Positions 1,420 through 49,120 of a stretch of DNA of 64,000 nucleotides are shown here, one piece after another. The position numbers were made by a program, and so were the translations under genes. The stretch comes from Halarcobacter sp. (GTDB lineage Bacteria; Campylobacterota; Campylobacteria; Campylobacterales; Arcobacteraceae), in assembly GCA_048571215.1 (NCBI GenBank), contig CP182352.1, forward strand, positions 1,024,001-1,088,000, written 5' to 3'. A model generated the notes under the pieces. The model was not told the origin of the DNA and made no database searches. It saw nothing but the letters and a program-made list of their open reading frames with translations. Position 1 is the first letter of the stretch. Each line of letters starts with the position of its first letter.

Positions 1420-1934
1420 GAATCTTTTTTTTGGGTATGCTATTCCTAGCTACTTTAAGTTATTTTATACCAGTAAATAATAAAAAAGTAGATGATAATA
1501 TAGATGATATAGCACTTTTAACTTTTGATGATGCTACAATGTATACTCTAACAACTGAAAGTATGAATAGAATAATCTATACAAAAAAAGCTGTTAGATA
1601 TAAAACAAAAGATATGATGTATGATGGAGCTTTAACTTTAAAAAGTAAAGATAAAGCTAATAATCAAATCACAGATGTTTTATATGCAGATTTGATTATA
1701 AAAAGAGGTGATAACTTCAAATTTATAAATAATGTTAAATATAAAAGAGATGATTATATAACTTTATATACTAATGAATTAGTATATAATGCTAAAAATA
1801 AAATAGCAACAAATAGTGTTCCTTTTAATGGAACCTATTACAATAATAGTTTAAGTGGTGAAAAAATTTATCTAAATTTAAATAAATATCATTTAAAAGC
1901 AGATAATACCCATTTTGAAATAAATATTAAATAG
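1410..1934 (+). CDS. lptC: LPS export periplasmic protein LptC-like
   Basis: N-terminal membrane anchor and beta-rich body; kdsC-lptC-lptA synteny. The sequence is divergent, so the call rests mainly on position. Confidence 0.7.
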   Translation: MVIRIFFLGMLFLATLSYFIPVNNKKVDDNIDDIALLTFDDATMYTLTTESMNRIIYTKKAVRYKTKDMMYDGALTLKSKDKANNQITDVLYADLIIKRGDNFKFINNVKYKRDDYITLYTNELVYNAKNKIATNSVPFNGTYYNNSLSGEKIYLNLNKYHLKADNTHFEINIK

Positions 1935-1946
1935 ATGAGGAAATAG

Positions 1947-2435
1947 ATGAAATATATATTAGCTTTAGCTTTTTTTATATCTTTAAGTTTTGCACAACAA
2001 GAAAAACTTGTAATTGATGCAAATAGTTTTGAAGCAGATGATAAAAGAGGTATCTCGGTATTTACTGGTAATGTAAAATTAAAAATGGGTAATGATAGAT
2101 TAAATGCCAACAAGTTAGAGATATATGTGGACACAAAAAGTAAATCAAAATCAAAAACTCCTACAAAATATATTGCAACAGGTGCTGTTGACTTTGAGAT
2201 TCATTCAAAAGGAAAAATATTTATTGGAAATGGAAATAGAGTAATATATAACCCAAGTAAACAAGAATATACAGTTATTGGTAAAGGTTATATAAAAGAA
2301 AAAGTTGAACAAAGAGAAATCTATGCAGATAAAATATTTATAAATCAGTTAACAGGTAGTGCAAGGGTTAGTGGTAGTGAAGATAAACCTGTTAGATTTA
2401 TTTTAAATATTGACAATAGTGGAAAACAACAATGA
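1947..2435 (+). CDS. lptA: LPS transport periplasmic protein LptA
   Basis: Signal peptide; OstA-type IDANSFEAD...FTGNVKL...YIATG and KPVRFIL. Confidence 0.88.
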   Translation: MKYILALAFFISLSFAQQEKLVIDANSFEADDKRGISVFTGNVKLKMGNDRLNANKLEIYVDTKSKSKSKTPTKYIATGAVDFEIHSKGKIFIGNGNRVIYNPSKQEYTVIGKGYIKEKVEQREIYADKIFINQLTGSARVSGSEDKPVRFILNIDNSGKQQ

Positions 2436-3034
2436 AAATAGTTGATGCTAAGTTTTTAACTTCTGCTCAAAGTATAAGTGATTCTCCCAGTCCTGATTGT
2501 GCAGAAGTTGCTTTTTTAGGTAGAAGTAATGTTGGTAAATCTTCATTATTGAATACTTTAACAAATAGAAAAGGTTTAGCAAAATCCTCATCAACTCCAG
2601 GGAAAACCCAATTGATAAACTATTTTGATATAAAATTTAAAACAACAAATGAAGAAACACCATATCTTTTTTCAAGATTTGTTGATTTACCTGGATTTGG
2701 ATATGCTAAAGTTTCTAAAAGTTTAAAAAAAGAGTGGAATAGAAACTTAACTGAGTATTTAGAGCAAAGACCAAACTTACAAATCTTTGTACACTTAATA
2801 GATGCCAGACATCCACAACTAGAGATTGATAAAAATGTAGATATGTTTTTAGATAGTATAAAAAGGGGTGATCAGATTATTTTACATGCTTTTACAAAAA
2901 CTGATAAGTTAAAGCAAAATGATTTGGCAAAATTAAAAAGGGAATATCCAGAAGGGATATTTGTATCTAACCTTAAAAAAAGAGGTTTGGACCAACTTCA
3001 AAATAGAATTACAGGATATTTATTTGGAAATTAA
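2432..3034 (+). CDS. yihA: Ribosome biogenesis GTP-binding protein YihA/YsxC (EngB)
   Basis: GRSNVGKSS, STPGKTQLIN, DLPGFGYAK and TKTDK motifs. Confidence 0.96.
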   Translation: MKIVDAKFLTSAQSISDSPSPDCAEVAFLGRSNVGKSSLLNTLTNRKGLAKSSSTPGKTQLINYFDIKFKTTNEETPYLFSRFVDLPGFGYAKVSKSLKKEWNRNLTEYLEQRPNLQIFVHLIDARHPQLEIDKNVDMFLDSIKRGDQIILHAFTKTDKLKQNDLAKLKREYPEGIFVSNLKKRGLDQLQNRITGYLFGN

Positions 3035-3485
3035 TTTTTTTAAACCAGATGTAAGTCATATTATAGCAATGCAAGCACTAGTAAAAGAAGAGGTTGATAA
3101 TGGAACTATTCTTTTACGAACAGAAGATGAAATGGCTAATACTATTAGATCATATACTGTAGTTGAAGTGGATGGTGAACTAGCAGGATTTACTGCACTT
3201 CATATCCATTCAATTAGGTTATCAGAGGTAAGAAGTTTAGTTGTCTCAAAAAAATTTAGAGGCTTAAACTTAGGTAGAAAATTGGTTGAAGCTTGTATAA
3301 CAGAGGGGAAAAAACTTCAATTACAACAGATTTTGTCTTTAACCTATCAAAGAGAGTTCTTTTTGAAATTAGGTTTTAAAGAGATTGAAAAAGAGAATAT
3401 ACCTGAACATAAAATTTGGGCAGACTGTATTCGATGTAAACATTTCCCTATATGTGATGAAATTGCAATGGTTTATGATTTGTAA
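3024..3485 (+). CDS. GNAT N-acetyltransferase, short ArgA-like
   Basis: EVRSLVV...RGLNLG, FFLKLGF and KIWADCIRCKHFPICDE. Start moved to TTG 3024, which follows AGGA at 3013. Confidence 0.85.
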   Translation: MEINFFKPDVSHIIAMQALVKEEVDNGTILLRTEDEMANTIRSYTVVEVDGELAGFTALHIHSIRLSEVRSLVVSKKFRGLNLGRKLVEACITEGKKLQLQQILSLTYQREFFLKLGFKEIEKENIPEHKIWADCIRCKHFPICDEIAMVYDL

Positions 3486-29414: not shown

Positions 29415-31202
29415 TTATATTAGTTGGTTTTTTATAAACTCCAAATAGTGACCCTCTTCCTCTTCTAACTCTTTATGTGTTCCTCTTTGAACAATTTTAC
29501 CATTATCTAAGACATATATTCTATTTGCATTTTTAACTGTACTCAATCTATGAGCTATTGTAATCACTGTTTTATCTTCTAAGATAGGCATTAAAGAGTT
29601 AAATAGTTTTACTTCTGTATGTACATCTAAAGCAGAAGTTGACTCATCAAATATAACAATTGATGGATTGGCTATGATCATTCTAGCTATTGAGAGTCTT
29701 TGTCTTTGACCACCACTTAATCTAATCCCATGTTTACCCACTATAGTTTCAAGCTTATTATCCATATTTAAAATGGTATCTTTTAATTGAGCTATATCTA
29801 AAGCCTTATAAATATCCTCATCACTTATATTTTCTCTTCCCATTGTGATATTAAATCTCAGGGTGTTATTAAATAGTATTGGCATTTGTAATACTAAAAA
29901 GAGTTCATCCCTAAGGGATTGTTTATTTATCTCATCAACACTTATATTGTTATAAGTAATATCTCCACTATTTTTAGTATAAAAGGTTGCAATAACTTGT
30001 GCTAAAGTTGTTTTACCACTTCCACTTGCTCCAATTAAAGCTATTTTTTCACCTGCATTTATATCTAAATTTATATCATTTAATATATTTTTATCTCCAT
30101 CATAAGAGAAAGATACCTTATGAAGTTTTATATCAACACCATTTTCATTTTTATTTAATATTTTAGAACCATTTTTTTCTATATTTAAAGATAAAATTCT
30201 ATTGAGTCTTTCAATTGCTGCATTTGCCGTTGTATATGCGTATTGCATTGATAATATATCTTGTACTGGAGTCATAATAAACCATATATATCCAAACATT
30301 GCAAACATCATACCAATACTCAAATCACTATAAGCAACCATCACCAAGCCACTAGCTCGTAAGATCTCAAAAGCTACTAAAAAGATAGTAAAGGAGAACC
30401 TTTCATAAGCTACACTTTTATAGCTATAGTTGTTTGATGTTTCTTGTATCTGTTTTGCTTTATTTATTGAGTCATTAAAAAAATAGTTCTCTTTATTGCT
30501 AGCTTTTATTTGTCCAAATAGTTCTAAAGATTCTGAAATATTATCTTGAAAACTTTCTATGGAGTTGTTCTCTATTTTTTTCAAAGTTCCCACTTGCTTA
30601 GAGATTTTTTTTGATAAAACCATAATTATAGGTTGGATAAATAAAATCATCAAACCCAAAACAGGATGAATTGCTATCATTACAATTGATACTGCAATTA
30701 AAGTTAAAACAGAAGATATAAATTTACTTGCACTTGTTATTATAAAGTTATCTAAAGTAGTAACATCAGTTATTAAATTGGCTGATATTGCACCACTTCC
30801 CAAGCTTTCGTACTCATTCATACATACATTTTTAAGGTGATTTATAAGTTTTTCTCTAATCTTAAAGGTTACATATTTTGATATTTTTGTAAAAATTTTT
30901 GTTGTAATTACTCCAAAAATAAAATGAAGAACTCTTAGTATGATTACAGCTAGGGTTACTATTGCAATATAATAAAAAGCATTCCCAGCTCCAAAAAAAT
31001 TATCTATATTATTTATAAAAAAAGCGGGTTTTTTAAGAAGTACTTCATCTACAAGGGCAGGGAGCATTAAAGGGATAGGGATACTTATTAAAATCCCTAT
31101 TATAGTAGCAAACTGACCAAAGATAAGAGTTTTTTTCTCATCTAAGAGTAGTTTGAATATATATCTAAAGTTAATTTTTTCCATAGAATTTTGGAATCTC
31201 AA
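29415..31202 (-). CDS. ABC exporter, fused permease + ATPase
   Basis: TM domain; GASGSGKT, LSGGQRQR, FDESTSALD, IAHRLST. Alternative start ATG 31184. Confidence 0.95.
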   Translation of the reverse strand: MRFQNSMEKINFRYIFKLLLDEKKTLIFGQFATIIGILISIPIPLMLPALVDEVLLKKPAFFINNIDNFFGAGNAFYYIAIVTLAVIILRVLHFIFGVITTKIFTKISKYVTFKIREKLINHLKNVCMNEYESLGSGAISANLITDVTTLDNFIITSASKFISSVLTLIAVSIVMIAIHPVLGLMILFIQPIIMVLSKKISKQVGTLKKIENNSIESFQDNISESLELFGQIKASNKENYFFNDSINKAKQIQETSNNYSYKSVAYERFSFTIFLVAFEILRASGLVMVAYSDLSIGMMFAMFGYIWFIMTPVQDILSMQYAYTTANAAIERLNRILSLNIEKNGSKILNKNENGVDIKLHKVSFSYDGDKNILNDINLDINAGEKIALIGASGSGKTTLAQVIATFYTKNSGDITYNNISVDEINKQSLRDELFLVLQMPILFNNTLRFNITMGRENISDEDIYKALDIAQLKDTILNMDNKLETIVGKHGIRLSGGQRQRLSIARMIIANPSIVIFDESTSALDVHTEVKLFNSLMPILEDKTVITIAHRLSTVKNANRIYVLDNGKIVQRGTHKELEEEEGHYLEFIKNQLI

Positions 31203-41242: not shown

Positions 41243-41905
41243 ATGAAATCAATAACACAACTACAAACTATAGACAAACCAAGAGAGCGACTTTTAAAAT
41301 ATGGATTATCAGCACTTAAAAACTATGAACTTATAGCAGTTTTACTTGGAAGTGGAGTCCAAGGCAAAGATGTAATAAAACTCTCCCGTGAGATAGAAAA
41401 ATTTTTTAACTCAAACTTTGAAAACATAGATTTACAAACCCTTCTAAAAATACATGGCTTAGGCAAGGCAAAAGCTAGCCAGATAATAAGCGCTATAGAG
41501 CTAAGTCGCAGATACCTATTAGATACACAAAGTTATAAAATAAACTCTTCTAGTGATGTATATGAAGAGCTAAAACCCTATAAAAACAAACGCCAAGAAT
41601 ACTTTCTGACTCTATATTTAGATGGAGCAAATAATCTACTAGAAACCAAAATCATAACAATAGGAACCCTAAATCAAAGCCTAGTTCACCCAAGAGAAGT
41701 ATTCTCACACGCCATAGAAAAAAGATGCGCTAGTATAATAGTAGCCCATAATCACCCAAGTGGAATACTAAAACCAAGTAGTGAAGATATCAATGTAACA
41801 CAAAGACTGAAAGAGTCAGGGAAAATATTAGGCATAGAACTTTTAGATCATGTGATATTTACAAATGAGGGTTTTATTAGTTTACAAGAAGAGGGTGTGT
41901 TATGA
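41243..41905 (+). CDS. radC: RadC (JAB domain) protein
   Basis: KPRERL, GLGKAKA, VHPREVF, AHNHPSG...PS.ED, LLDHVI. Confidence 0.96.
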   Translation: MKSITQLQTIDKPRERLLKYGLSALKNYELIAVLLGSGVQGKDVIKLSREIEKFFNSNFENIDLQTLLKIHGLGKAKASQIISAIELSRRYLLDTQSYKINSSSDVYEELKPYKNKRQEYFLTLYLDGANNLLETKIITIGTLNQSLVHPREVFSHAIEKRCASIIVAHNHPSGILKPSSEDINVTQRLKESGKILGIELLDHVIFTNEGFISLQEEGVL

Positions 41906-42127
41906 ATTTTGAAGATAAAGATAATAGACTAGATAGTTGGAATAATAAGAAAAAACAAATCAATAACAGAATAAATATAAATCATAAGAAAGACGGTAGC
42001 GTTAAGTTTCGGATACAACCTTGGAGTTTATGGTGGTTTGAAGTTGGAGAGAATATAGGCAGTTATTACAAATGAAGATATAAATGCTATACAAGATTTT
42101 ATAAAAAAATATTTAAGTATTTTTTAG
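41902..42127 (+). pseudogene. PemK/MazF-like toxin gene with internal deletion and frameshift
   Basis: 41902-42075 encodes ...LDSWNNKKKQIN...SLWWFEVGENIGS then a premature stop. A shifted frame (42062-42127) gives VITNEDINAIQDFIKKYLSIF*, a MazF-like C-terminal helix. The central RP-containing core is missing. Confidence 0.75.
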
Positions 42128-42131
42128 ACAT

Positions 42132-42157
42132 AAAAAAAGGAACTTCTAAAAGTTCCT
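42132..42157 (-). terminator. Intrinsic terminator of the predicted small RNA
   Basis: AGGAACTT-N4-AAGTTCCT hairpin (42138-42157) followed on the minus strand by a T run (42137-42132). Confidence 0.8.
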
Positions 42158-42250
42158 CATAGTTACCCCTACTAAAAGGGATCGCTCCTTAAACGGAGTA
42201 ATTTATTTACCTCACCTTATAAAAGGTGAGTCGTCCCGAAGGATATTTGT
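42132..42250 (-). ncRNA. Predicted ~120-nt small RNA with two structural repeats, convergent with the PemK-like gene
   Basis: Consensus promoter upstream, four hairpins (one closed by C-UUCG-G on this strand), intrinsic terminator at the 3' end. Confidence 0.75.
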
Positions 42251-42256
42251 AAAAAT

Positions 42257-42285
42257 ATTATATCTAAGAATTTTTGTTTTGTCAA
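42257..42285 (-). promoter_or_regulatory. Perfect sigma70 consensus promoter on the minus strand
   Basis: TTGACA (42285-42280), 17 nt, TATAAT (42262-42257). Confidence 0.85.
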
Positions 42286-42316: not shown

Positions 42317-42517
42317 TTTACTTTTTGGTGGCAAAAAGTAAAACAAAAAGCCACCAACGGCTGCGAAGCCAAAGGTTCCCTCACTTATTATTTTTGTCTT
42401 TTCTGCTTGGTAAAACTCATTTATTAAAACTTGCATTTAGCAACTTTTAAACACTCAGACAGTTACCAATCTTGTTTAGAAAAGAAAAAAATAAACGTTC
42501 GGCTTCTGTAGATGTTG
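42317..42517. other. Highly structured ~200-nt non-coding element (pseudoknot-type head + long nested stem)
   Basis: Many nested complementary segments, detailed in findings. Whether it acts as RNA or ssDNA is unknown. Confidence 0.7.
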
Positions 42518-42640: not shown

Positions 42641-44092
42641 ATGTTTGAACAAACTTTTAAAAATATAGATGATATTTTATGGAAAGACTCTGGTGCTGAT
42701 AGTGAGCTTGATTATATAGGGCAAACCTCTTGGATAATGTTTTTAAGGTATCTTGATGAACTTGAAAATGAAAAAGCAGAAATAGCAGAACTTGAAGGCA
42801 AAGAATATACTTATATTTTAGATGAAGAGTTTCGTTGGAACTCTTGGGCTATGCCAAAAGTTGATGGAAAACTTGACCATCATAAAGCTATGACTGGTGT
42901 GGATTTAGTTCAATTTGTCGATGGTAAACTTTTCCCTTACCTTGCAAAGTTTAAACAAACAGCAGAACATGCACAAACTATCGAGTACAAAATCGGTGAG
43001 ATATTTTCTGAGCTTAAAAATAAAATTCAAAGTGGATACAACTTACGAGAGATATTAGAGTATGCAGATGAACTTCCTTTTCGCTCATCAAAAGACAAAC
43101 ACGAACTAAGCCATCTCTACGAAACCAAAATCAAAAACATGGGAAATGCGGGAAGAAATGGAGGGCAATACTATACTCCAAGACCGCTTATTCGTGCGAT
43201 GATAGATGTAATCGACCCTAAAATTGGTGAAAAAGTTTATGATGGTGCTGTGGGAAGTGCAGGGTTTTTATGTGAAGCGTATGACTACATGTACGAGCGA
43301 ATGAATAAAAATGTGGATAATCTAAAAATCTTACAAGAGCGAACCTTTTACGGAAAAGAGAAAAAAAACTTAGCCTATGTCATAGGTATCATGAATATGA
43401 TTTTACATGGTATAGAAGCACCAAATATTAAACACACCAACACTTTGGGTGAACCTATTCGTGATATACAAGAAAAAGACAGATACCATGTAATTTTGGC
43501 AAATCCACCCTTTGGTGGAAAAGAGCGAAAAGAGGTACAACAAAACTTCGATATAAAAACAGGCGAAACTGCCTTTTTATTTTTGCAACACTTTATCAAG
43601 TCACTTAAAGCCGGCGGTCGAGCAGCAATTGTCATCAAAAATACTATTTTAAGTAATAGCGACAATGCTTCTATAGCTTTAAGAAAACATCTTTTAGAGA
43701 GTTGTAATCTTCATACTATCTTAGATATGCCAGCAGGTACTTTTACAGGAGCTGGTGTAAAAACTGTAGTTTTATTTTTCACAAAAGGGGAAGCAACTAA
43801 AAAAATCTGGTACTACTCTTTAAATCCCGGACGAAATATGGGGAAAACAAATCCTTTAAACGATAAGGATATGTTGGATTTTAAAACTTTACAAAAAAGT
43901 AAAAAAGATAGTCTTAACTCTTGGAGTATAAATATTAACGATATAGATGAAACTACTTGTGATTTAAGTGTAAAAAATCCTCATACTCCAGAGGAAGCAC
44001 CTCTTAGAACGCCAAAACAGATTTTAGAAGAGATGGGAACTTTAGATAAAGAAACAAATAATATTTTAGCTTCTATTAAAGAGATGGTATGA
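42641..44092 (+). CDS. hsdM: Type I R-M N6-adenine methyltransferase subunit
   Basis: GQYYTPR, DGAVGSAGFL, LANPPFGG; extended -10 TGCTATAAT at 42592-42600. Confidence 0.96.
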   Translation: MFEQTFKNIDDILWKDSGADSELDYIGQTSWIMFLRYLDELENEKAEIAELEGKEYTYILDEEFRWNSWAMPKVDGKLDHHKAMTGVDLVQFVDGKLFPYLAKFKQTAEHAQTIEYKIGEIFSELKNKIQSGYNLREILEYADELPFRSSKDKHELSHLYETKIKNMGNAGRNGGQYYTPRPLIRAMIDVIDPKIGEKVYDGAVGSAGFLCEAYDYMYERMNKNVDNLKILQERTFYGKEKKNLAYVIGIMNMILHGIEAPNIKHTNTLGEPIRDIQEKDRYHVILANPPFGGKERKEVQQNFDIKTGETAFLFLQHFIKSLKAGGRAAIVIKNTILSNSDNASIALRKHLLESCNLHTILDMPAGTFTGAGVKTVVLFFTKGEATKKIWYYSLNPGRNMGKTNPLNDKDMLDFKTLQKSKKDSLNSWSININDIDETTCDLSVKNPHTPEEAPLRTPKQILEEMGTLDKETNNILASIKEMV

Positions 44093-45267
44093 AACAAGGT
44101 TGGAAAGAAGAAACTTTAGGTGAAATTGGTAAAGTATCTATGTGTAAACGGATTTTAAAAAAACAAACCAATAATATAAGTGGTGTTCCATTTTACAAAA
44201 TTGGAACATTTGGTAAACAACCAAACGCCTTTATATCTGAAGAAATCTATAATGAATTTAAACAAAAATATTCTTTTCCTAAAAAAGGAGATATTCTTTT
44301 ATCTGCTTCAGGAACTATTGGTAGACGAGTAATTTATGACGGAAAACCAGCTTATTTTCAAGATTCAAATATAGTTTGGATTAACAATAATGAAAAAAAA
44401 GTATTAAACGAATATCTATATAAATTTTATGGATTTTGTAATTGGAACCCTTCAAAAGGTGCTACAATTTCTAGACTTTACAATGATGATTTAAAAAGAA
44501 TTAAAATTCCAATTCCTCCAATAGAAGAACAAAAACAAATCGTAGAAATTTTAGATAAAGCTTTTGAATCAATAGAACAAGCAAAAGTAAATATTGGAAA
44601 AAATATACAAAATTCAAAAGAGCTTTTTCAAAGTAGATTAAATGAAATATTTTCAGGGAAAGGTGATGAATGGGAAGAAAAAAAACTAAAAGATGTATGT
44701 ATTAAAATAACAGATGGTACACATCAAACACCAAAATATTTTGATAGTGGATATATTTTCTTATCTTCAAAAAATGTTACAAGTGGAGTTATAAATTGGG
44801 AAAATATAAAATATATTGATGAAGAACAACACCATCAAATGCAAAAAAGAGTTTCTCCTCAATTAGATGATATTTTATTGGCAAAGAATGGTACAACAGG
44901 AGTTGCTGCAATTGTTGATAGAGCAGTAGAATTTGATATTTATGTTAGTCTTGCCTTATTAAGAGCTTCAGAAGAACTAGAAGCTAAATATTTACTACAC
45001 TTTGTTAATTCTCCAACTGCAAAAACTCAATTTAATCAAAGGTTAAAAGGAGTTGGTGTTCCTAATCTTCACTTAGTAGAAATTAGAGAAATTATAATAA
45101 AATATCCAATAGATAAAAATGAACAAAAAAATATAATTGACTATATTGATACTTTGATTGAAAAGAAAAATAGTTTGTTAAAAAACTATCAACTAAAACT
45201 AAACAATCTAGAAGAACTAAAAAAATCAATCTTGCAAAAAGCATTTAGTGGAGAGCTAGTACCATGA
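44089..45267 (+). CDS. hsdS: Type I R-M specificity subunit (two TRDs)
   Basis: PIPPIEEQKQIV...ELFQSRLNEIFS and EQKNII...ELKKSILQKAFSGEL conserved repeats. Confidence 0.95.
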   Translation: MKQGWKEETLGEIGKVSMCKRILKKQTNNISGVPFYKIGTFGKQPNAFISEEIYNEFKQKYSFPKKGDILLSASGTIGRRVIYDGKPAYFQDSNIVWINNNEKKVLNEYLYKFYGFCNWNPSKGATISRLYNDDLKRIKIPIPPIEEQKQIVEILDKAFESIEQAKVNIGKNIQNSKELFQSRLNEIFSGKGDEWEEKKLKDVCIKITDGTHQTPKYFDSGYIFLSSKNVTSGVINWENIKYIDEEQHHQMQKRVSPQLDDILLAKNGTTGVAAIVDRAVEFDIYVSLALLRASEELEAKYLLHFVNSPTAKTQFNQRLKGVGVPNLHLVEIREIIIKYPIDKNEQKNIIDYIDTLIEKKNSLLKNYQLKLNNLEELKKSILQKAFSGELVP

Positions 45268-47672
45268 ATGAATCACAAACTGAACTTGAGTATATTGAAC
45301 CAGCTTTAAAAAAAGCTGGATGGGGAGTTGTTGAAGATAGTAAAATATATAAACAATTTCCAATCTCTCAAGGTCGGTTATTAGGTAATGGTAGAAGAGC
45401 AAAGCCACTTAAAGCTGATTATGTACTTCGCTATAAAAATAGATATATAGGAGTAATAGAAGCTAAAAAAAGAGACCTACACTATAGCGATGGTGTAACT
45501 CAAGCAAAAGATTATGCCCAGCGCTTAAAGATACGATTTACCTACTCAACAAACGGAAAAGGTATCTATCAAATAGATATGGATGAAAGCATTGAGGGTG
45601 ATGTGGCACATTTTCCTACACCTGATGAGTTATGGAATATGACCTTCCCTAAAGAAGATACTTTACAAGATAAGTTTTATGAGATACCACTAAACGATAA
45701 AGGTGGAACTTGGTATCCAAGATATTATCAAAACAATGCCATAAACAAAACTCTTGAAGCAATAGCTCAAGATAAGAAAAAAATCTTACTCACCCTAGCA
45801 ACTGGTACAGGGAAAACAGATATTGCATTTCAAATAGTATGGAAACTATTTCATGCAAAATGGAATATTCAAAAAGACTTTTCTAGGTCTCCTAGAATTC
45901 TATTTTTAGCAGATAGAAATATATTGGCAAACCAAGCTTTCAATAAATTTAACTTTTTTGATGATGAAGAGACTTTAGTTAGAATCGACCCAAGTGAGAT
46001 ACGAAAAAAGAATAAAGTTCCAACAAACGGAAATGTATTTTTTACTATATTTCAAACTTTTATGAGTGGAGAGAGTGACACTCCAAACTTTGGACAGTAC
46101 CCTAGCGATTTTTTCGATTTTATCATCATAGATGAGTGTCATAGAGGCGGAGCAAATGATGAGAGTAAATGGAGAGCTATCTTAGAGTATTTTAGTCCTG
46201 CTTATCAGCTTGGACTTACCGCAACACCAAAAAGAGATGTTAATGGTGATACTTACAATTACTTTGGAGAGCCAGTTTATCAATACTCTTTAAAAGAGGG
46301 GATAAATGATGGTTTTTTAACCCCTTTTAAAGTGAAAAATATCTCAACTACAGGAGATACTTATATCTTTACCAGTGATGATGAAGTTTTAGAAGGTGAA
46401 ATAGAAGAGGGAAAAGAGTACACACTAGATGAGCAAAATAAAATCATAGAGATTATGGGAATAGAGAAGTATAGAGTAAAACTTTTTATGGATATGATGA
46501 ACCAAAGTCAAAAGACTTTGGTCTTTTGTGAAACGCAACCCCATGCCTCTGCTATAAGAAACCTTATCAATCAAAAAGCAAAGAGCAAAAATATAGATTA
46601 TTGTCATAGGGTCACAGCAGATGAGGGAAGTCGTGGAGAGAAGTTTTTACTTGATTTTCAAGATAATGAAAAAACAATTCCAACAGTTCTTACCACATCA
46701 AGAAAACTAAGCACTGGTGTAGATGCTCCTGAGATAAAAAACATCGTGCTTATGCGTAAAGTAAAATCAATGGTTGAGTTTAAACAAATCATTGGTCGAG
46801 GAACACGACTTTTTGATGGGAAAGACTATTTTACTATTTTTGATTTTTATAAAAATCATACACATTTTCATGACCCTGATTGGGATGGTGAACAAATAGA
46901 CCCAGAAGAACCAACTCCAAAACCTCCAAAAGAGCCTTGTAAACTATGTGGTCAGTTACCTTGTACTTGTCCTAAACCTGAACCAGTACCTTGTCCTATA
47001 TGCGATAATTTACCTTGTATTTGTGATAATCCAAGAACAATGATTCGAGTAAAACTTTCAAATGGAAAAGCACGAGAACTTGACTCTATGGTTCAAACAC
47101 TTTTTTATTCACCAGAGGGAAAACCTATCTCTTCATCTGAGTTTGTGAGTAAACTTTTTGATAAAATACCAGAGTTTTTTGGAAATGAAGAAGAACTAAG
47201 AAGAATTTGGAGTTTACCTGATACAAGAAAAAGATTGATTGAAGAGTTGAGCGAAGCGGGTTATAGTGTAGAACAACTTGAAAACTTAAAAGAAGTAATA
47301 CATGGTGAAGATAGTGACCTTTTTGATGTGTTGTCATATATCGCTTATCATAAAGATTTAGTTCCAAGACTTGAAAGAGCAACAAAAGCTAAGATGAAAA
47401 TTAGTGGATATGATGAAGGAAAACAAGAGTTTTTAAACTTTGTATTGAGTCAGTATGTTGAGAATGGTGTAAATGAACTTGATGATGCCAGATTAAAAGA
47501 TTTATTAATTATAAAATATGATGCTTTAGAGGATGCAAAAAAAAGTATAGGTGATATAAAGAGTATCAGAGAAACTTTTATAGGATTTCAAAAGTATTTA
47601 TATGAAGATATAGTAAATAATACTTATGATAATGACTTATTAGTAGCCCAACCAAAACCAGAGTATAATTAA
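45264..47672 (+). CDS. hsdR: Type I R-M restriction subunit (EcoAI/EcoEI-like)
   Basis: ADYVL...IEAK nuclease motif; ATGTGKT, DECHRG, TATP, TGVD, QIIGRGTR; EcoEI-type C-terminus. Confidence 0.95.
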   Translation: MNESQTELEYIEPALKKAGWGVVEDSKIYKQFPISQGRLLGNGRRAKPLKADYVLRYKNRYIGVIEAKKRDLHYSDGVTQAKDYAQRLKIRFTYSTNGKGIYQIDMDESIEGDVAHFPTPDELWNMTFPKEDTLQDKFYEIPLNDKGGTWYPRYYQNNAINKTLEAIAQDKKKILLTLATGTGKTDIAFQIVWKLFHAKWNIQKDFSRSPRILFLADRNILANQAFNKFNFFDDEETLVRIDPSEIRKKNKVPTNGNVFFTIFQTFMSGESDTPNFGQYPSDFFDFIIIDECHRGGANDESKWRAILEYFSPAYQLGLTATPKRDVNGDTYNYFGEPVYQYSLKEGINDGFLTPFKVKNISTTGDTYIFTSDDEVLEGEIEEGKEYTLDEQNKIIEIMGIEKYRVKLFMDMMNQSQKTLVFCETQPHASAIRNLINQKAKSKNIDYCHRVTADEGSRGEKFLLDFQDNEKTIPTVLTTSRKLSTGVDAPEIKNIVLMRKVKSMVEFKQIIGRGTRLFDGKDYFTIFDFYKNHTHFHDPDWDGEQIDPEEPTPKPPKEPCKLCGQLPCTCPKPEPVPCPICDNLPCICDNPRTMIRVKLSNGKARELDSMVQTLFYSPEGKPISSSEFVSKLFDKIPEFFGNEEELRRIWSLPDTRKRLIEELSEAGYSVEQLENLKEVIHGEDSDLFDVLSYIAYHKDLVPRLERATKAKMKISGYDEGKQEFLNFVLSQYVENGVNELDDARLKDLLIIKYDALEDAKKSIGDIKSIRETFIGFQKYLYEDIVNNTYDNDLLVAQPKPEYN

Positions 47673-48121: not shown

Positions 48122-49120
48122 ATGAGTAAAAAAAATATAAAGATTGTTCAAAATATTTTAAAAAAGCAAGATAAATATGACATAGCTATAAAACTTGAAA
48201 ATGCTTATTATGAAGATTATCAAATAGATAATTGGAATGGTGGTATTGGTCAGGTTGAGATATTTGTTCATCCTAATTATTTTTTTGAATTTAATAGTTT
48301 AGATGAAGAAACTACAACTATTTTGATAAAAATATTTAATGCTTTACCCCATGAATACTTTGAGATTAACTCCATAAAATTTTCAATAAATACTGATGTA
48401 AATATTGAAAATATAAGTGATACACTATACATATTTGTTGATGAGGCTGGAGATTTTGATTTCTCTTCAAAAGGTTCAAAGCATTATATGTTTACTTTTT
48501 TGGCAAAAAGAAGACCTTTTAATCTACATGAATATATTTCAAACTATAGATACTCATTATTAGAAAGAAATTTAGACCCATTTATTGATAAAAGATTAGA
48601 TATCGAAGCATTTCATGCTTGTGAAGATAATAGTTATGTAAAAAATGAATTATTTAATATCATCTCTACTTTTGATGAAAGTAGTGTAAAAGCTTACTCT
48701 TATGTACTGGATAAACCCAAAGTCTTACCTGATAAAAGAGCTCAAAAAGATAAGTTTTATATTGATAATCTTAGTTTTGCTATTCAAAAGCTCTTGGATG
48801 GATTGCAAATTGATAAAAACTTTGTAATTATTACAGATAGATTGCCAGTACAAAAAAATAAAAACAAACAAGTTGGGGCTTTAAAAAAAGGGATTAAAGA
48901 GTATCTAAAAAATAAAAAACTTGATAAACAAATAAGATATGATATTTTTCATCATTGTAGTGCATCAAGTGCAAATCTTCAAATTGTTGATTATATCTGT
49001 TGGGCAATATTTAGAAAGTTTGAAAGAAATGATGATAGATATTATAAAAGAGTTGAAAAATATTTGATAAAAATTGATGAAATGACTAAGGATAGGAAAA
49101 AAGTTCATTATGATAAATGA
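48122..49120 (+). CDS. DUF3800 family protein (predicted RNase H-like fold) with an extra N-terminal domain
   Basis: YIFVDEAGD, FHA, IITDR and NLQIVDYICWAI (QxxD) motifs; extended -10 TGATATAAT at 48074-48082. Confidence 0.85.
   Translation: MSKKNIKIVQNILKKQDKYDIAIKLENAYYEDYQIDNWNGGIGQVEIFVHPNYFFEFNSLDEETTTILIKIFNALPHEYFEINSIKFSINTDVNIENISDTLYIFVDEAGDFDFSSKGSKHYMFTFLAKRRPFNLHEYISNYRYSLLERNLDPFIDKRLDIEAFHACEDNSYVKNELFNIISTFDESSVKAYSYVLDKPKVLPDKRAQKDKFYIDNLSFAIQKLLDGLQIDKNFVIITDRLPVQKNKNKQVGALKKGIKEYLKNKKLDKQIRYDIFHHCSASSANLQIVDYICWAIFRKFERNDDRYYKRVEKYLIKIDEMTKDRKKVHYDK

Follow-up and report, generated by a model that had tools for sequence, protein, structure and literature searches.

How a ribonuclease (RNase) of the PemK/MazF toxin family is held in check when no protein antitoxin is encoded beside it was the question raised by a locus at 41902 to 42285 of a 64-kb stretch of Halarcobacter sp. 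contig CP182352.1 (the window). An earlier note on this DNA had described a broken toxin gene at the 3′ end of radC, both on the plus strand, facing a small-RNA gene on the minus strand, and had suggested that the RNA is an antitoxin. The RNA gene and the PemK/MazF gene were found to be a conserved pair. The small RNA is, judged from the sequence comparisons given below, probably the antitoxin.

The pairing was assessed with R1, a covariance model of the first structural unit of the RNA. The flanking DNA of all listed R1 matches was fetched and two duplicates (L039 and L046) were dropped, leaving 90 matches, of which 83 scored at least 30 bits. A convergent match to a toxin profile was present within 800 nt downstream in 73/83, and a same-strand match in 0/83. 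The toxin profile was trained on these loci, so the count of 73/83 is not independent. Among representative partner open reading frames (ORFs), 29/30 matched the toxin family PF02452 (E ≤ 1e-3), 28 of them above the Pfam cut-off, and the association of the RNA gene with a PemK/MazF toxin, read earlier from a single locus, was thereby borne out. Since the genomes are related, locus counts here and below are not counts of independent events, and several were made by eye.

The locus and its predicted small RNA

The following features were assigned, with hairpins numbered H1 to H4 in the direction of the small RNA.

41243..41905, plus strand: radC, encoding a RadC-like JAB protein of 220 aa (PF04002, E 3.8e-42; PF20582)
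41902..42075, plus strand: 57-aa remnant ORF consisting of toxin codons 1-54 (41902-42063), three out-of-frame codons and a stop
42065..42127, plus strand: last 20 toxin codons and stop in the +1 frame, ITNEDINAIQDFIKKYLSIF*, with 16/20 residues identical to residues 156-175 of P0006
42285..42257, minus strand: sigma-70-type promoter TTGACA-17-TATAAT, matching the consensus at 12/12 positions
42131..42250, minus strand: predicted small RNA of ~120 nt, both ends predicted, from promoter, hairpins and intrinsic terminator; order 7-nt leader, H1, CGA, H2, GUAAAUAAAUUA, H3, CGAU, H4, terminator
42199..42252, minus strand: unit 1 motif (AYAAWU leader, H1, ACGAC linker, H2, GUAAAU tail), 73.1 bits with R1
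42243-42234, minus strand: H1, UCC-UUCG-GGA
42230-42211, minus strand: H2, with perfect arms of 8 bp
42167..42198, minus strand: unit 2 (H3, CGAU linker, H4), found only with the 174-aa toxin class
42198-42185, minus strand: H3
42180-42167, minus strand: H4
42158-42137, minus strand: terminator hairpin of nine pairs followed by a U run, ending 10 nt short of the toxin stop codon

The toxin start lies on the radC stop, as had been noted, in an ATGA overlap at 41902-41905. The 57-aa ORF was matched by nine longer proteins (128-175 aa; 74-91% identity, 91-95% coverage), all nine with PF02452, and corresponds to the first 54 residues of these homologues; the fragment itself gave no Pfam or NCBIfam match. 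The 175-aa homologue P0006 was used as the reference for the C-terminal end of the toxin. Between 42063 and 42065 a deletion has removed codons 55-155 (~302 nt) and disrupted the frame, in agreement with the earlier view that the toxin allele is inactivated. Exactly at the deletion point, an RNA-library contig of a relative holds 290 extra letters. In the family alignment the deleted part contains an invariant R-P and P-L-T/S stretch, which we take to be the catalytic Arg and Thr of MazF. With codons 55-155 lost, the RNA gene of the window is an orphan.

The perfect minus-strand promoter was confirmed and is unique in the 64 kb, with 0.03 such sites expected per window (mean of 100 dinucleotide-preserving shuffles, three of which had one). 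The predicted start of the RNA is 7 bases past the −10 box. From 42250 down, the RNA sequence was exactly as described before, with the terminator just short of the toxin stop. The 133-nt stretch was folded to −39.5 kcal/mol, against −26.35 ± 3.84 kcal/mol for shuffled sequences (z −3.42; 1/200 shuffles equal). H1 is not drawn in the minimum-free-energy structure; the centroid structure retains H2, H3, H4 and the terminator. No tRNA or tmRNA was found within the window, and a comparison with Rfam, proposed in the earlier note, gave no family at the small RNA (E ≤ 10 for the window, E ≤ 1 for 20 related loci). The small-RNA sequence is single-copy in the 3.6-Mb genome. A weak R1 match elsewhere in the same genome (L107, 25.8 bits), which has neither a promoter nor an adjoining toxin, was taken as false.

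A covarying RNA motif beside PemK/MazF genes

A DNA search of 184 genomes of the window's family gave 29 other loci. Of these, 27/29 carried the promoter together with the initial 50 nt of the RNA (by eye), and L028 and L030 matched in the promoter only. Alignment of 20 distinct sequences gave an AYAAWU leader, H1, AC(G/U)AC, H2 and G(U/A)AAA. Across these 20 sequences 92.5% of cells were paired in the named structure, compared with at most 54% when the partners were slid, and two-sided changes were present in 7/12 pairs. The covariation score was reached by 0/500 shuffles, a control that ignores relatedness. H1 takes the form UCC/GGA or GCC/GGC, and H2 was found in at least four unrelated sequences (CUCACCUU, CUCUCUUAC, CCGUCUU and CCCACUU). 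The stretch UCCUUCGGGAC(G/U)AC is nearly invariant although the toxins are only 34-71% identical. The R1 motif was present in 60/151 family genomes and 17/22 genera, and a near-consensus promoter precedes nearly all homologous copies of the RNA (by eye). Both the covariance model and the alignment tests therefore support a covarying RNA downstream of the toxin homologues, on which the earlier proposal had depended.

A chance origin of promoter and hairpins in an AT-rich intergenic stretch was considered. The region is indeed AT-rich, although its 13 promoter-like sites only slightly exceed the 9.2 expected. The rarity of perfect promoters in the shuffled windows and the recurrence of the motif with covariation across the family both contradict it, and this explanation, which carries practically no weight, is already refuted by conservation.

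The hairpins might instead act as DNA, in an attC-like recombination site bounding toxin cassettes at the radC 3′ end, with the RNA being incidental. Promoter, leader and H1 are nearly invariant at the radC loci, and H2 and toxin covary in at least four variants, which resembles an exchange of cassettes whose boundary falls within the RNA gene. Against this, a near-consensus promoter is kept in 19/20 diverged loci, described below, and in other families of the order. Counting of 74 distinct R1 matches gave 44 GU/UG cells and 6 AC/CA cells, an excess that favours the promoter strand as the folding strand, with 31 of the 44 coming from one doubtful pair and the alignment being model-fitted. No integrase was seen next to the loci in the ORF tables read, no search aimed at integrases having been made. 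A DNA site is considered very improbable.

Beside the 83 RNA copies the toxin looked intact in 54, broken in 16 (the window included), absent in 10 and cut by a contig end in 3. A toxin was called intact where it gave one uninterrupted profile match, and two pairs of rows share one toxin. The reverse comparison was made with a profile of 31 toxins, from which 76 matches at 125 bits or more were inspected by hand; 55 of these 76 best toxin matches coincided with an R1 match and 21 did not. The DNA of 20 of the 21 was fetched (G067:C203 was left out). A weak R1 match was located at exactly the expected place in 11/20 of these loci, and a TTGAC-N17-TATAAT-like promoter with two hairpins ending at the toxin stop was seen in 19/20 (by eye), including diverged RNA sequence families such as ACAAACCAACCUG..CAGGAAGCCCCUAA..UUAGGGG. 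L129 has the hairpins but no visible promoter, the only such case among the toxin genes examined. Decay of the pair is one-sided: RNA copies outlive toxins, and not the reverse.

Two toxin-RNA modules of different variants stand in tandem, ~1.1 kb apart, at L109, L110, L042, L068, L113 and L145. The second module often follows xseB or the RNA gene of the first.

No protein antitoxin was detectable for the intact toxins, and the earlier statement that none is encoded upstream, made for the window, was extended to 42 distinct intact toxins, none with a recognisable antitoxin gene. In twenty of them the start overlaps the end of a radC-like gene by 4 nt (radC likeness by eye). The other upstream contexts were an HsdM-like gene with a 4-nt overlap (one), a 370-aa gene with a 16-nt overlap (two) and a position after xseB (four), the rest being unrelated. 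No conserved small ORF was found upstream of the 42 toxins. The 49 ORFs of 40-130 aa located up to 450 nt upstream included no MazE, PemI, AbrB or ribbon-helix-helix family; they gave XseB (four), one CDGSH, one weak chance match and one YafQ fragment on the opposite strand. Downstream of the intact toxins there was only the RNA gene. PADLOC and NCBIfam held no family for these toxins.

In a structural model of a 135-aa toxin (pLDDT, predicted local distance difference test, 81.6), a MazF fold is preceded by a predicted N-terminal helix (residues 2-15). The closest structures were Bacillus subtilis YdcE/MazF and Staphylococcus aureus MazF, with a template modelling (TM) score of ~0.75 (target-normalised) and a Foldseek probability of 1.00, and the same MazF proteins were retrieved with a sequence profile. 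Residues W7, N8, K11 and K12 of the helix (W-N-x-x-K-K) are invariant or nearly so, conserved like the RP motif. Canonical MazF proteins of the same genomes (109-121 aa) align only from profile position ~22 onward. The extra basic N-terminal helix marks exactly the RNA-associated clade.

The RNA could be real and serve some other end, either as a bidirectional terminator or insulator with an antisense promoter, or as a regulator or cofactor of the toxin. In the insulator variant it would shield the downstream restriction-modification genes from radC read-through. The hairpins lie exactly between convergent or tandem genes, the RNA persists with the toxin broken or absent in 26/83 copies, and at three loci an unrelated PD-T4-5-like gene replaces the toxin, all of which would suit such a function. 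Against this, it is the toxin that the element accompanies into many unrelated contexts; radC and the downstream genes do not move with it. A toxin that keeps its catalytic motifs and has no second antitoxin would need a neutraliser, and a terminator would not need a consensus promoter. A role other than that of antitoxin is judged unlikely.

Mode of action of the candidate antitoxin

The window RNA had been described as two similar units. Their common two-hairpin shape was upheld, and unit 2 is conserved and covarying; likeness in sequence was not found. No tandem repeat was detected in the window RNA by Tandem Repeats Finder (TRF), the only repeat being a 12-nt direct repeat of 83% identity, 47 nt apart. 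Unit 2 was rejected as a recognisable copy of unit 1, as R1 gave no unit-2 match at E ≤ 1. Two-unit RNA was present in 8/8 loci with the 174-aa toxin class (the window, L110, L003, L031, L043 and three metagenome contigs); two records of this class are assigned to Arcobacteraceae. The layout is unit 1, the linker UAAAUUACU (invariant in 8/8), H3, H4 in two alternative forms, and the terminator. Compensatory changes were present in 10/28 predicted pairs of the eight RNAs, the terminator being among the covarying parts. The two-unit RNA is a real but rare sub-class, and the common form has one unit.

Outside the family, R1 gave one good match among 145 genomes (a sample of the phylum), beside a toxin remnant. 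With the toxin profile the clade was found in 29/301 genomes and in eight families of the order besides the window's own. A promoter with hairpins ending at the toxin stop was seen in 16/20 loci from seven other families (by eye), six of the 16 being R1-like and the rest longer forms; L153, L154, L155 and L157 were unclear. The clade was also located on plasmids of Nitratiruptor, Helicobacter and Campylobacter.

The plasmid pVir of Campylobacter jejuni 81-176 encodes a homologue of the toxin (41% identity, 77% of query, E 6e-12). Its gene (30630-31034 of NC_005012.1; L164) faces a convergent promoter and a three-hairpin RNA that ends at its stop codon. This RNA is homologous, with compensatory changes, to that of L159 (another family) and was not matched by R1. 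The gene is the only annotated toxin-antitoxin gene of pVir, under the name 'type II PemK/MazF family toxin', and has no antitoxin gene alongside, the nearest upstream gene ending 233 nt away. The type II label for this toxin clade is probably wrong. The validated pVir small RNA CJpv2 maps elsewhere on the plasmid and not at the PemK gene.

A type I pair of pVir, cjrA/cjpT, was reportedly described by Shen et al. in 2016 (Mol Microbiol 101:909). In papers that cite it, cjrA is given as a validated antisense RNA antitoxin of type I (PMC10470494, PMC7826846). That cjpT is the pVir PemK-like gene is a guess held with slightly better than even confidence. If it is, one member of the present group has already been validated as type I, and what is new would be the pairing across the family, the structures of the RNAs and the two-unit variant.

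The mechanism proposed for the window is as follows. The locus would once have held a two-gene toxin-antitoxin module, of which the RNA-antitoxin gene survives. The toxin would be a PemK/MazF-family endoribonuclease with an extra basic N-terminal helix, lacking a promoter of its own in most loci and with its translation coupled to the upstream gene (here radC). The antitoxin would be a short, highly structured RNA, made on the opposite strand from its own consensus promoter, with its last hairpin at the toxin stop. The folded RNA would bind the toxin protein directly, as in type III systems. Its conserved single-stranded stretches would fill the groove that binds RNA; short-lived and made in excess, the RNA would silence pre-made toxin.

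We infer from comparative evidence that the RNA is produced and acts as an antitoxin, and likewise how it may act. Its obligate pairing, the consensus promoter and the one-sided decay point to the antitoxin role, as does the lack of another neutraliser where the toxin keeps its catalytic motifs. Direct binding is the favoured mode, although tentatively and at somewhat less than even confidence. It is suggested by the coupling of the toxin to radC, since pairing at the 3′ end would then be unlikely to stop synthesis. It is further suggested by the sequence conservation of leader, H1 and linkers across divergent toxins, by the basic helix that marks the RNA-associated clade, and by the two-unit RNA, which stops at its own terminator ahead of the toxin ORF.

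In a type I-like alternative the small RNA would be a cis-encoded antisense antitoxin. The toxin mRNA would extend through the RNA gene or terminate within it, and the abundant small RNA would pair with this 3′ end so that the duplex is cut and the mRNA decays. RNase III cleaves such duplexes in txpA/RatA and bsrG/SR4 of B. subtilis. Transcription converging from the strong promoter may in addition hamper the completion of toxin transcripts. The RNA is always convergent. In most one-unit loci the distance from its last hairpin to the toxin stop is −28 to +1 nt, and in the window it is 10 nt. For the toxin mRNA, H3 and the following U-rich AAUUUAUUUA score as terminator-like on the plus strand, so that both transcripts would have complementary 3′ ends with an overlap of ~60 nt. 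The invariant UAAAUUACU would be complementary to the U-rich tail of the toxin mRNA. In addition, cjrA is reported as an antisense type I antitoxin on pVir, which holds a homologous toxin with a convergent RNA.

Other observations argue against antisense action. Pairing at the 3′ end cannot block translation of a radC-coupled ORF, the linkers and H1 are conserved far beyond the needs of complementarity, and the toxin is an enzyme of 130-175 aa and not a small membrane peptide. The link to cjrA/cjpT leans on the identity of cjpT guessed at above. Pairing with the toxin start region was also considered and was rejected, the mean duplex energy being −14.29 kcal/mol for 40 cognate pairs and −14.83 kcal/mol for non-cognate pairs. 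An antisense mode is a serious alternative, held to be somewhat less likely than direct binding.

Several observations weigh against a protein-binding antitoxin. The earlier note had argued that the RNA is clear of the toxin ORF and so would bind protein in preference to acting as antisense. The RNA does lie clear of the ORF in the window and the two-unit class; most one-unit loci abut or overlap the stop. Measured from where the R1 match ends, the toxin stop of the one-unit form falls at −28 to +1 nt. The final toxin codons are often contained in the 3′ arm of H2, and an overlap of the RNA gene with the toxin is present in most loci. Antisense action is therefore a real possibility. Strict tail-to-tail placement at the stop, across unrelated RNA families, is predicted by cis-antisense action or a shared terminator, and is not needed by a protein-binding RNA. 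If cjrA belongs to this family, the published reading is the rival type I. A correlation between RNA type and toxin clade would arise from co-inheritance alone. The sole RNA run consists of poly(A) metatranscriptome contigs with a word share of 0.16, which give no start, end or strand. The relative's contig from this source spans radC, an intact toxin and the RNA gene and ends at 42233, 17 nt inside the predicted RNA; lacking start, end and strand, it is no evidence of transcription.

Comparison with known systems and neighbouring genes

Type III toxins have a Kid/MazF-like fold. As of 2025 three major type III families with upstream repeats are recognised (PMC12283969). The present modules resemble toxIN, cptIN and tenpIN in their endoribonuclease toxin, in a structured RNA that would neutralise it when made in excess and in an often defence-related context. 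They differ in that the toxin belongs to PF02452 and is not ToxN, CptN or TenpN. The RNA here is downstream and convergent with its own promoter, whereas theirs consists of upstream repeats on the same strand with a terminator before the toxin. Mostly a single unit is present here, formed of hairpins with no evident pseudoknot, and binding and processing are only proposed. The earlier claim of an architecture unlike that of toxIN-type loci was sustained, the RNA being convergent with its own promoter and free of TRF repeats.

The pair cjrA/cjpT, from the same bacterial order, likewise sets an antitoxin made of RNA against a protein toxin, and pVir carries a homologous toxin. It differs in being classified as type I antisense, and the pVir RNA is of another sequence family than that of the window.

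The convergent type I pairs txpA/RatA and bsrG/SR4 of B. subtilis encode small hydrophobic toxin peptides. They share with the present modules tail-to-tail genes, a small RNA with a strong promoter and a possible 3′ overlap that includes the terminator hairpins. The toxin here is, in contrast, a MazF-fold RNase of 130-175 aa that is translationally coupled to the gene upstream. As regards the complementarity expected of type I systems, convergence of the genes is accompanied in many loci by an overlap between the RNA gene and the final toxin codons, and no cognate complementarity is present at the toxin start. With the type II systems MazEF and PemIK the modules share the toxin family PF02452 and its fold; unlike these, they have no MazE/PemI-type gene and have the extra N-terminal W-N-x-x-K-K helix.

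A further structured RNA tied by name to pemK genes is the pemK RNA motif (RF02913). It was reportedly named by Weinberg et al. in 2017 for its association with pemK, and is said to lie upstream in Firmicutes and to be treated as cis-regulatory. RF02913 (gathering threshold 34.8 bits) gave no match in the window at E ≤ 10 or in 20 related loci at E ≤ 1. It also gave none in the window's own genome, a result that says little, as the control genomes gave none either. The literature searches turned up no paper in which a PF02452 toxin is paired with an antitoxin RNA. The novelty left provisional in the earlier note is made less certain by the pVir homologue with its convergent RNA and by the report of cjrA on that plasmid.

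MazF/PemK is a textbook type II toxin family. The annotation names seen for these toxins were only 'type II PemK/MazF family toxin', with no RNA partner, and the plasmid gene table holds no RNA genes. Makarova et al. (2009, PMC2701414) described more than half the toxin genes of large families as solo and named small RNAs as a possible explanation. An RNA-paired clade would offer one explanation for solo MazF/PemK toxins. As a tentative generalisation from sequence, with less than an even likelihood, 'orphan' PF02452 RNases with the extra basic N-terminal helix across Campylobacterales may be neutralised by a convergent hairpin RNA that has its own promoter and binds them directly. If true, this would add a fourth kind to the RNA antitoxins that bind protein. 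Many of the MazF toxins filed in databases as 'orphan type II' would then each be one half of an RNA-protein pair, and the 3′ ends of host operons in defence islands would be places where toxin alleles are swapped as cassettes. The modules would also provide a test system for whether a pseudo-substrate RNA can inhibit a MazF-fold RNase and, if so, an evolutionary link between type II and type III. The covariance model and ~100 loci are supplied for further work.

Beyond the RNA promoter, a type I restriction-modification system occupies 42641-47672 (HsdM 42641-44092, HsdS 44089-45267, HsdR-like 45264-47672), and a DUF3800 protein is encoded at 48122-49120 after the HsdR-like gene. With a complete restriction-modification system adjoining, the module lies at the edge of a defence island. 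Modules elsewhere also adjoin restriction-modification and other defence genes, which makes a role in phage defence testable. The unannotated stretch 42357-42515, between the RNA promoter and hsdM, is covered by a 464-nt RNA-library contig with 10 differences; a small terminator-like hairpin lies on the minus strand at 42362-42349.

The radC 3′ end looks like a hot spot of cassette exchange for toxin alleles (window 41902-42285; L031-L068). The exchange boundaries are nearly invariant, being formed by the last codons of radC on one side and by RNA promoter, leader and H1 on the other, and H2 and toxin between them occur in at least four unrelated variants. L033 and L034 have radC and the RNA gene only. 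At L073, L091 and L096 the RNA faces a 193-aa PD-T4-5-like ORF (PADLOC E 5.9e-16) instead of a PemK gene. The frame of this ORF ends in the last codons of the former toxin (..KELID*), so the toxin was seemingly replaced by recombination inside its 3′ end.

At L026 the RNA unit (1533-1584) is followed immediately by a second consensus-like promoter and a hairpin RNA with a terminator. This second RNA converges on a Drt8-like reverse transcriptase on the other strand (ORF 1749-3074, PADLOC E 1.5e-101). The arrangement may represent a defence reverse transcriptase with its own non-coding RNA beside an orphan antitoxin.

A close likeness to the core motif was also seen at L117 (197-237) and L118, two contig ends of G308, where UCCUACGGGACGAC, a GC-rich hairpin and GGUAA gave 25.3 bits. 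The surrounding DNA is richer in GC and lacks an AT-rich promoter, and no toxin was matched downstream. At L152, L153, L154, L155, L134, L135 and L137 the toxin matches lie inside frames of 325-599 aa that run into the next gene or have no nearby stop, and these long-frame homologues may be fusions or the product of frame-extension read-through.

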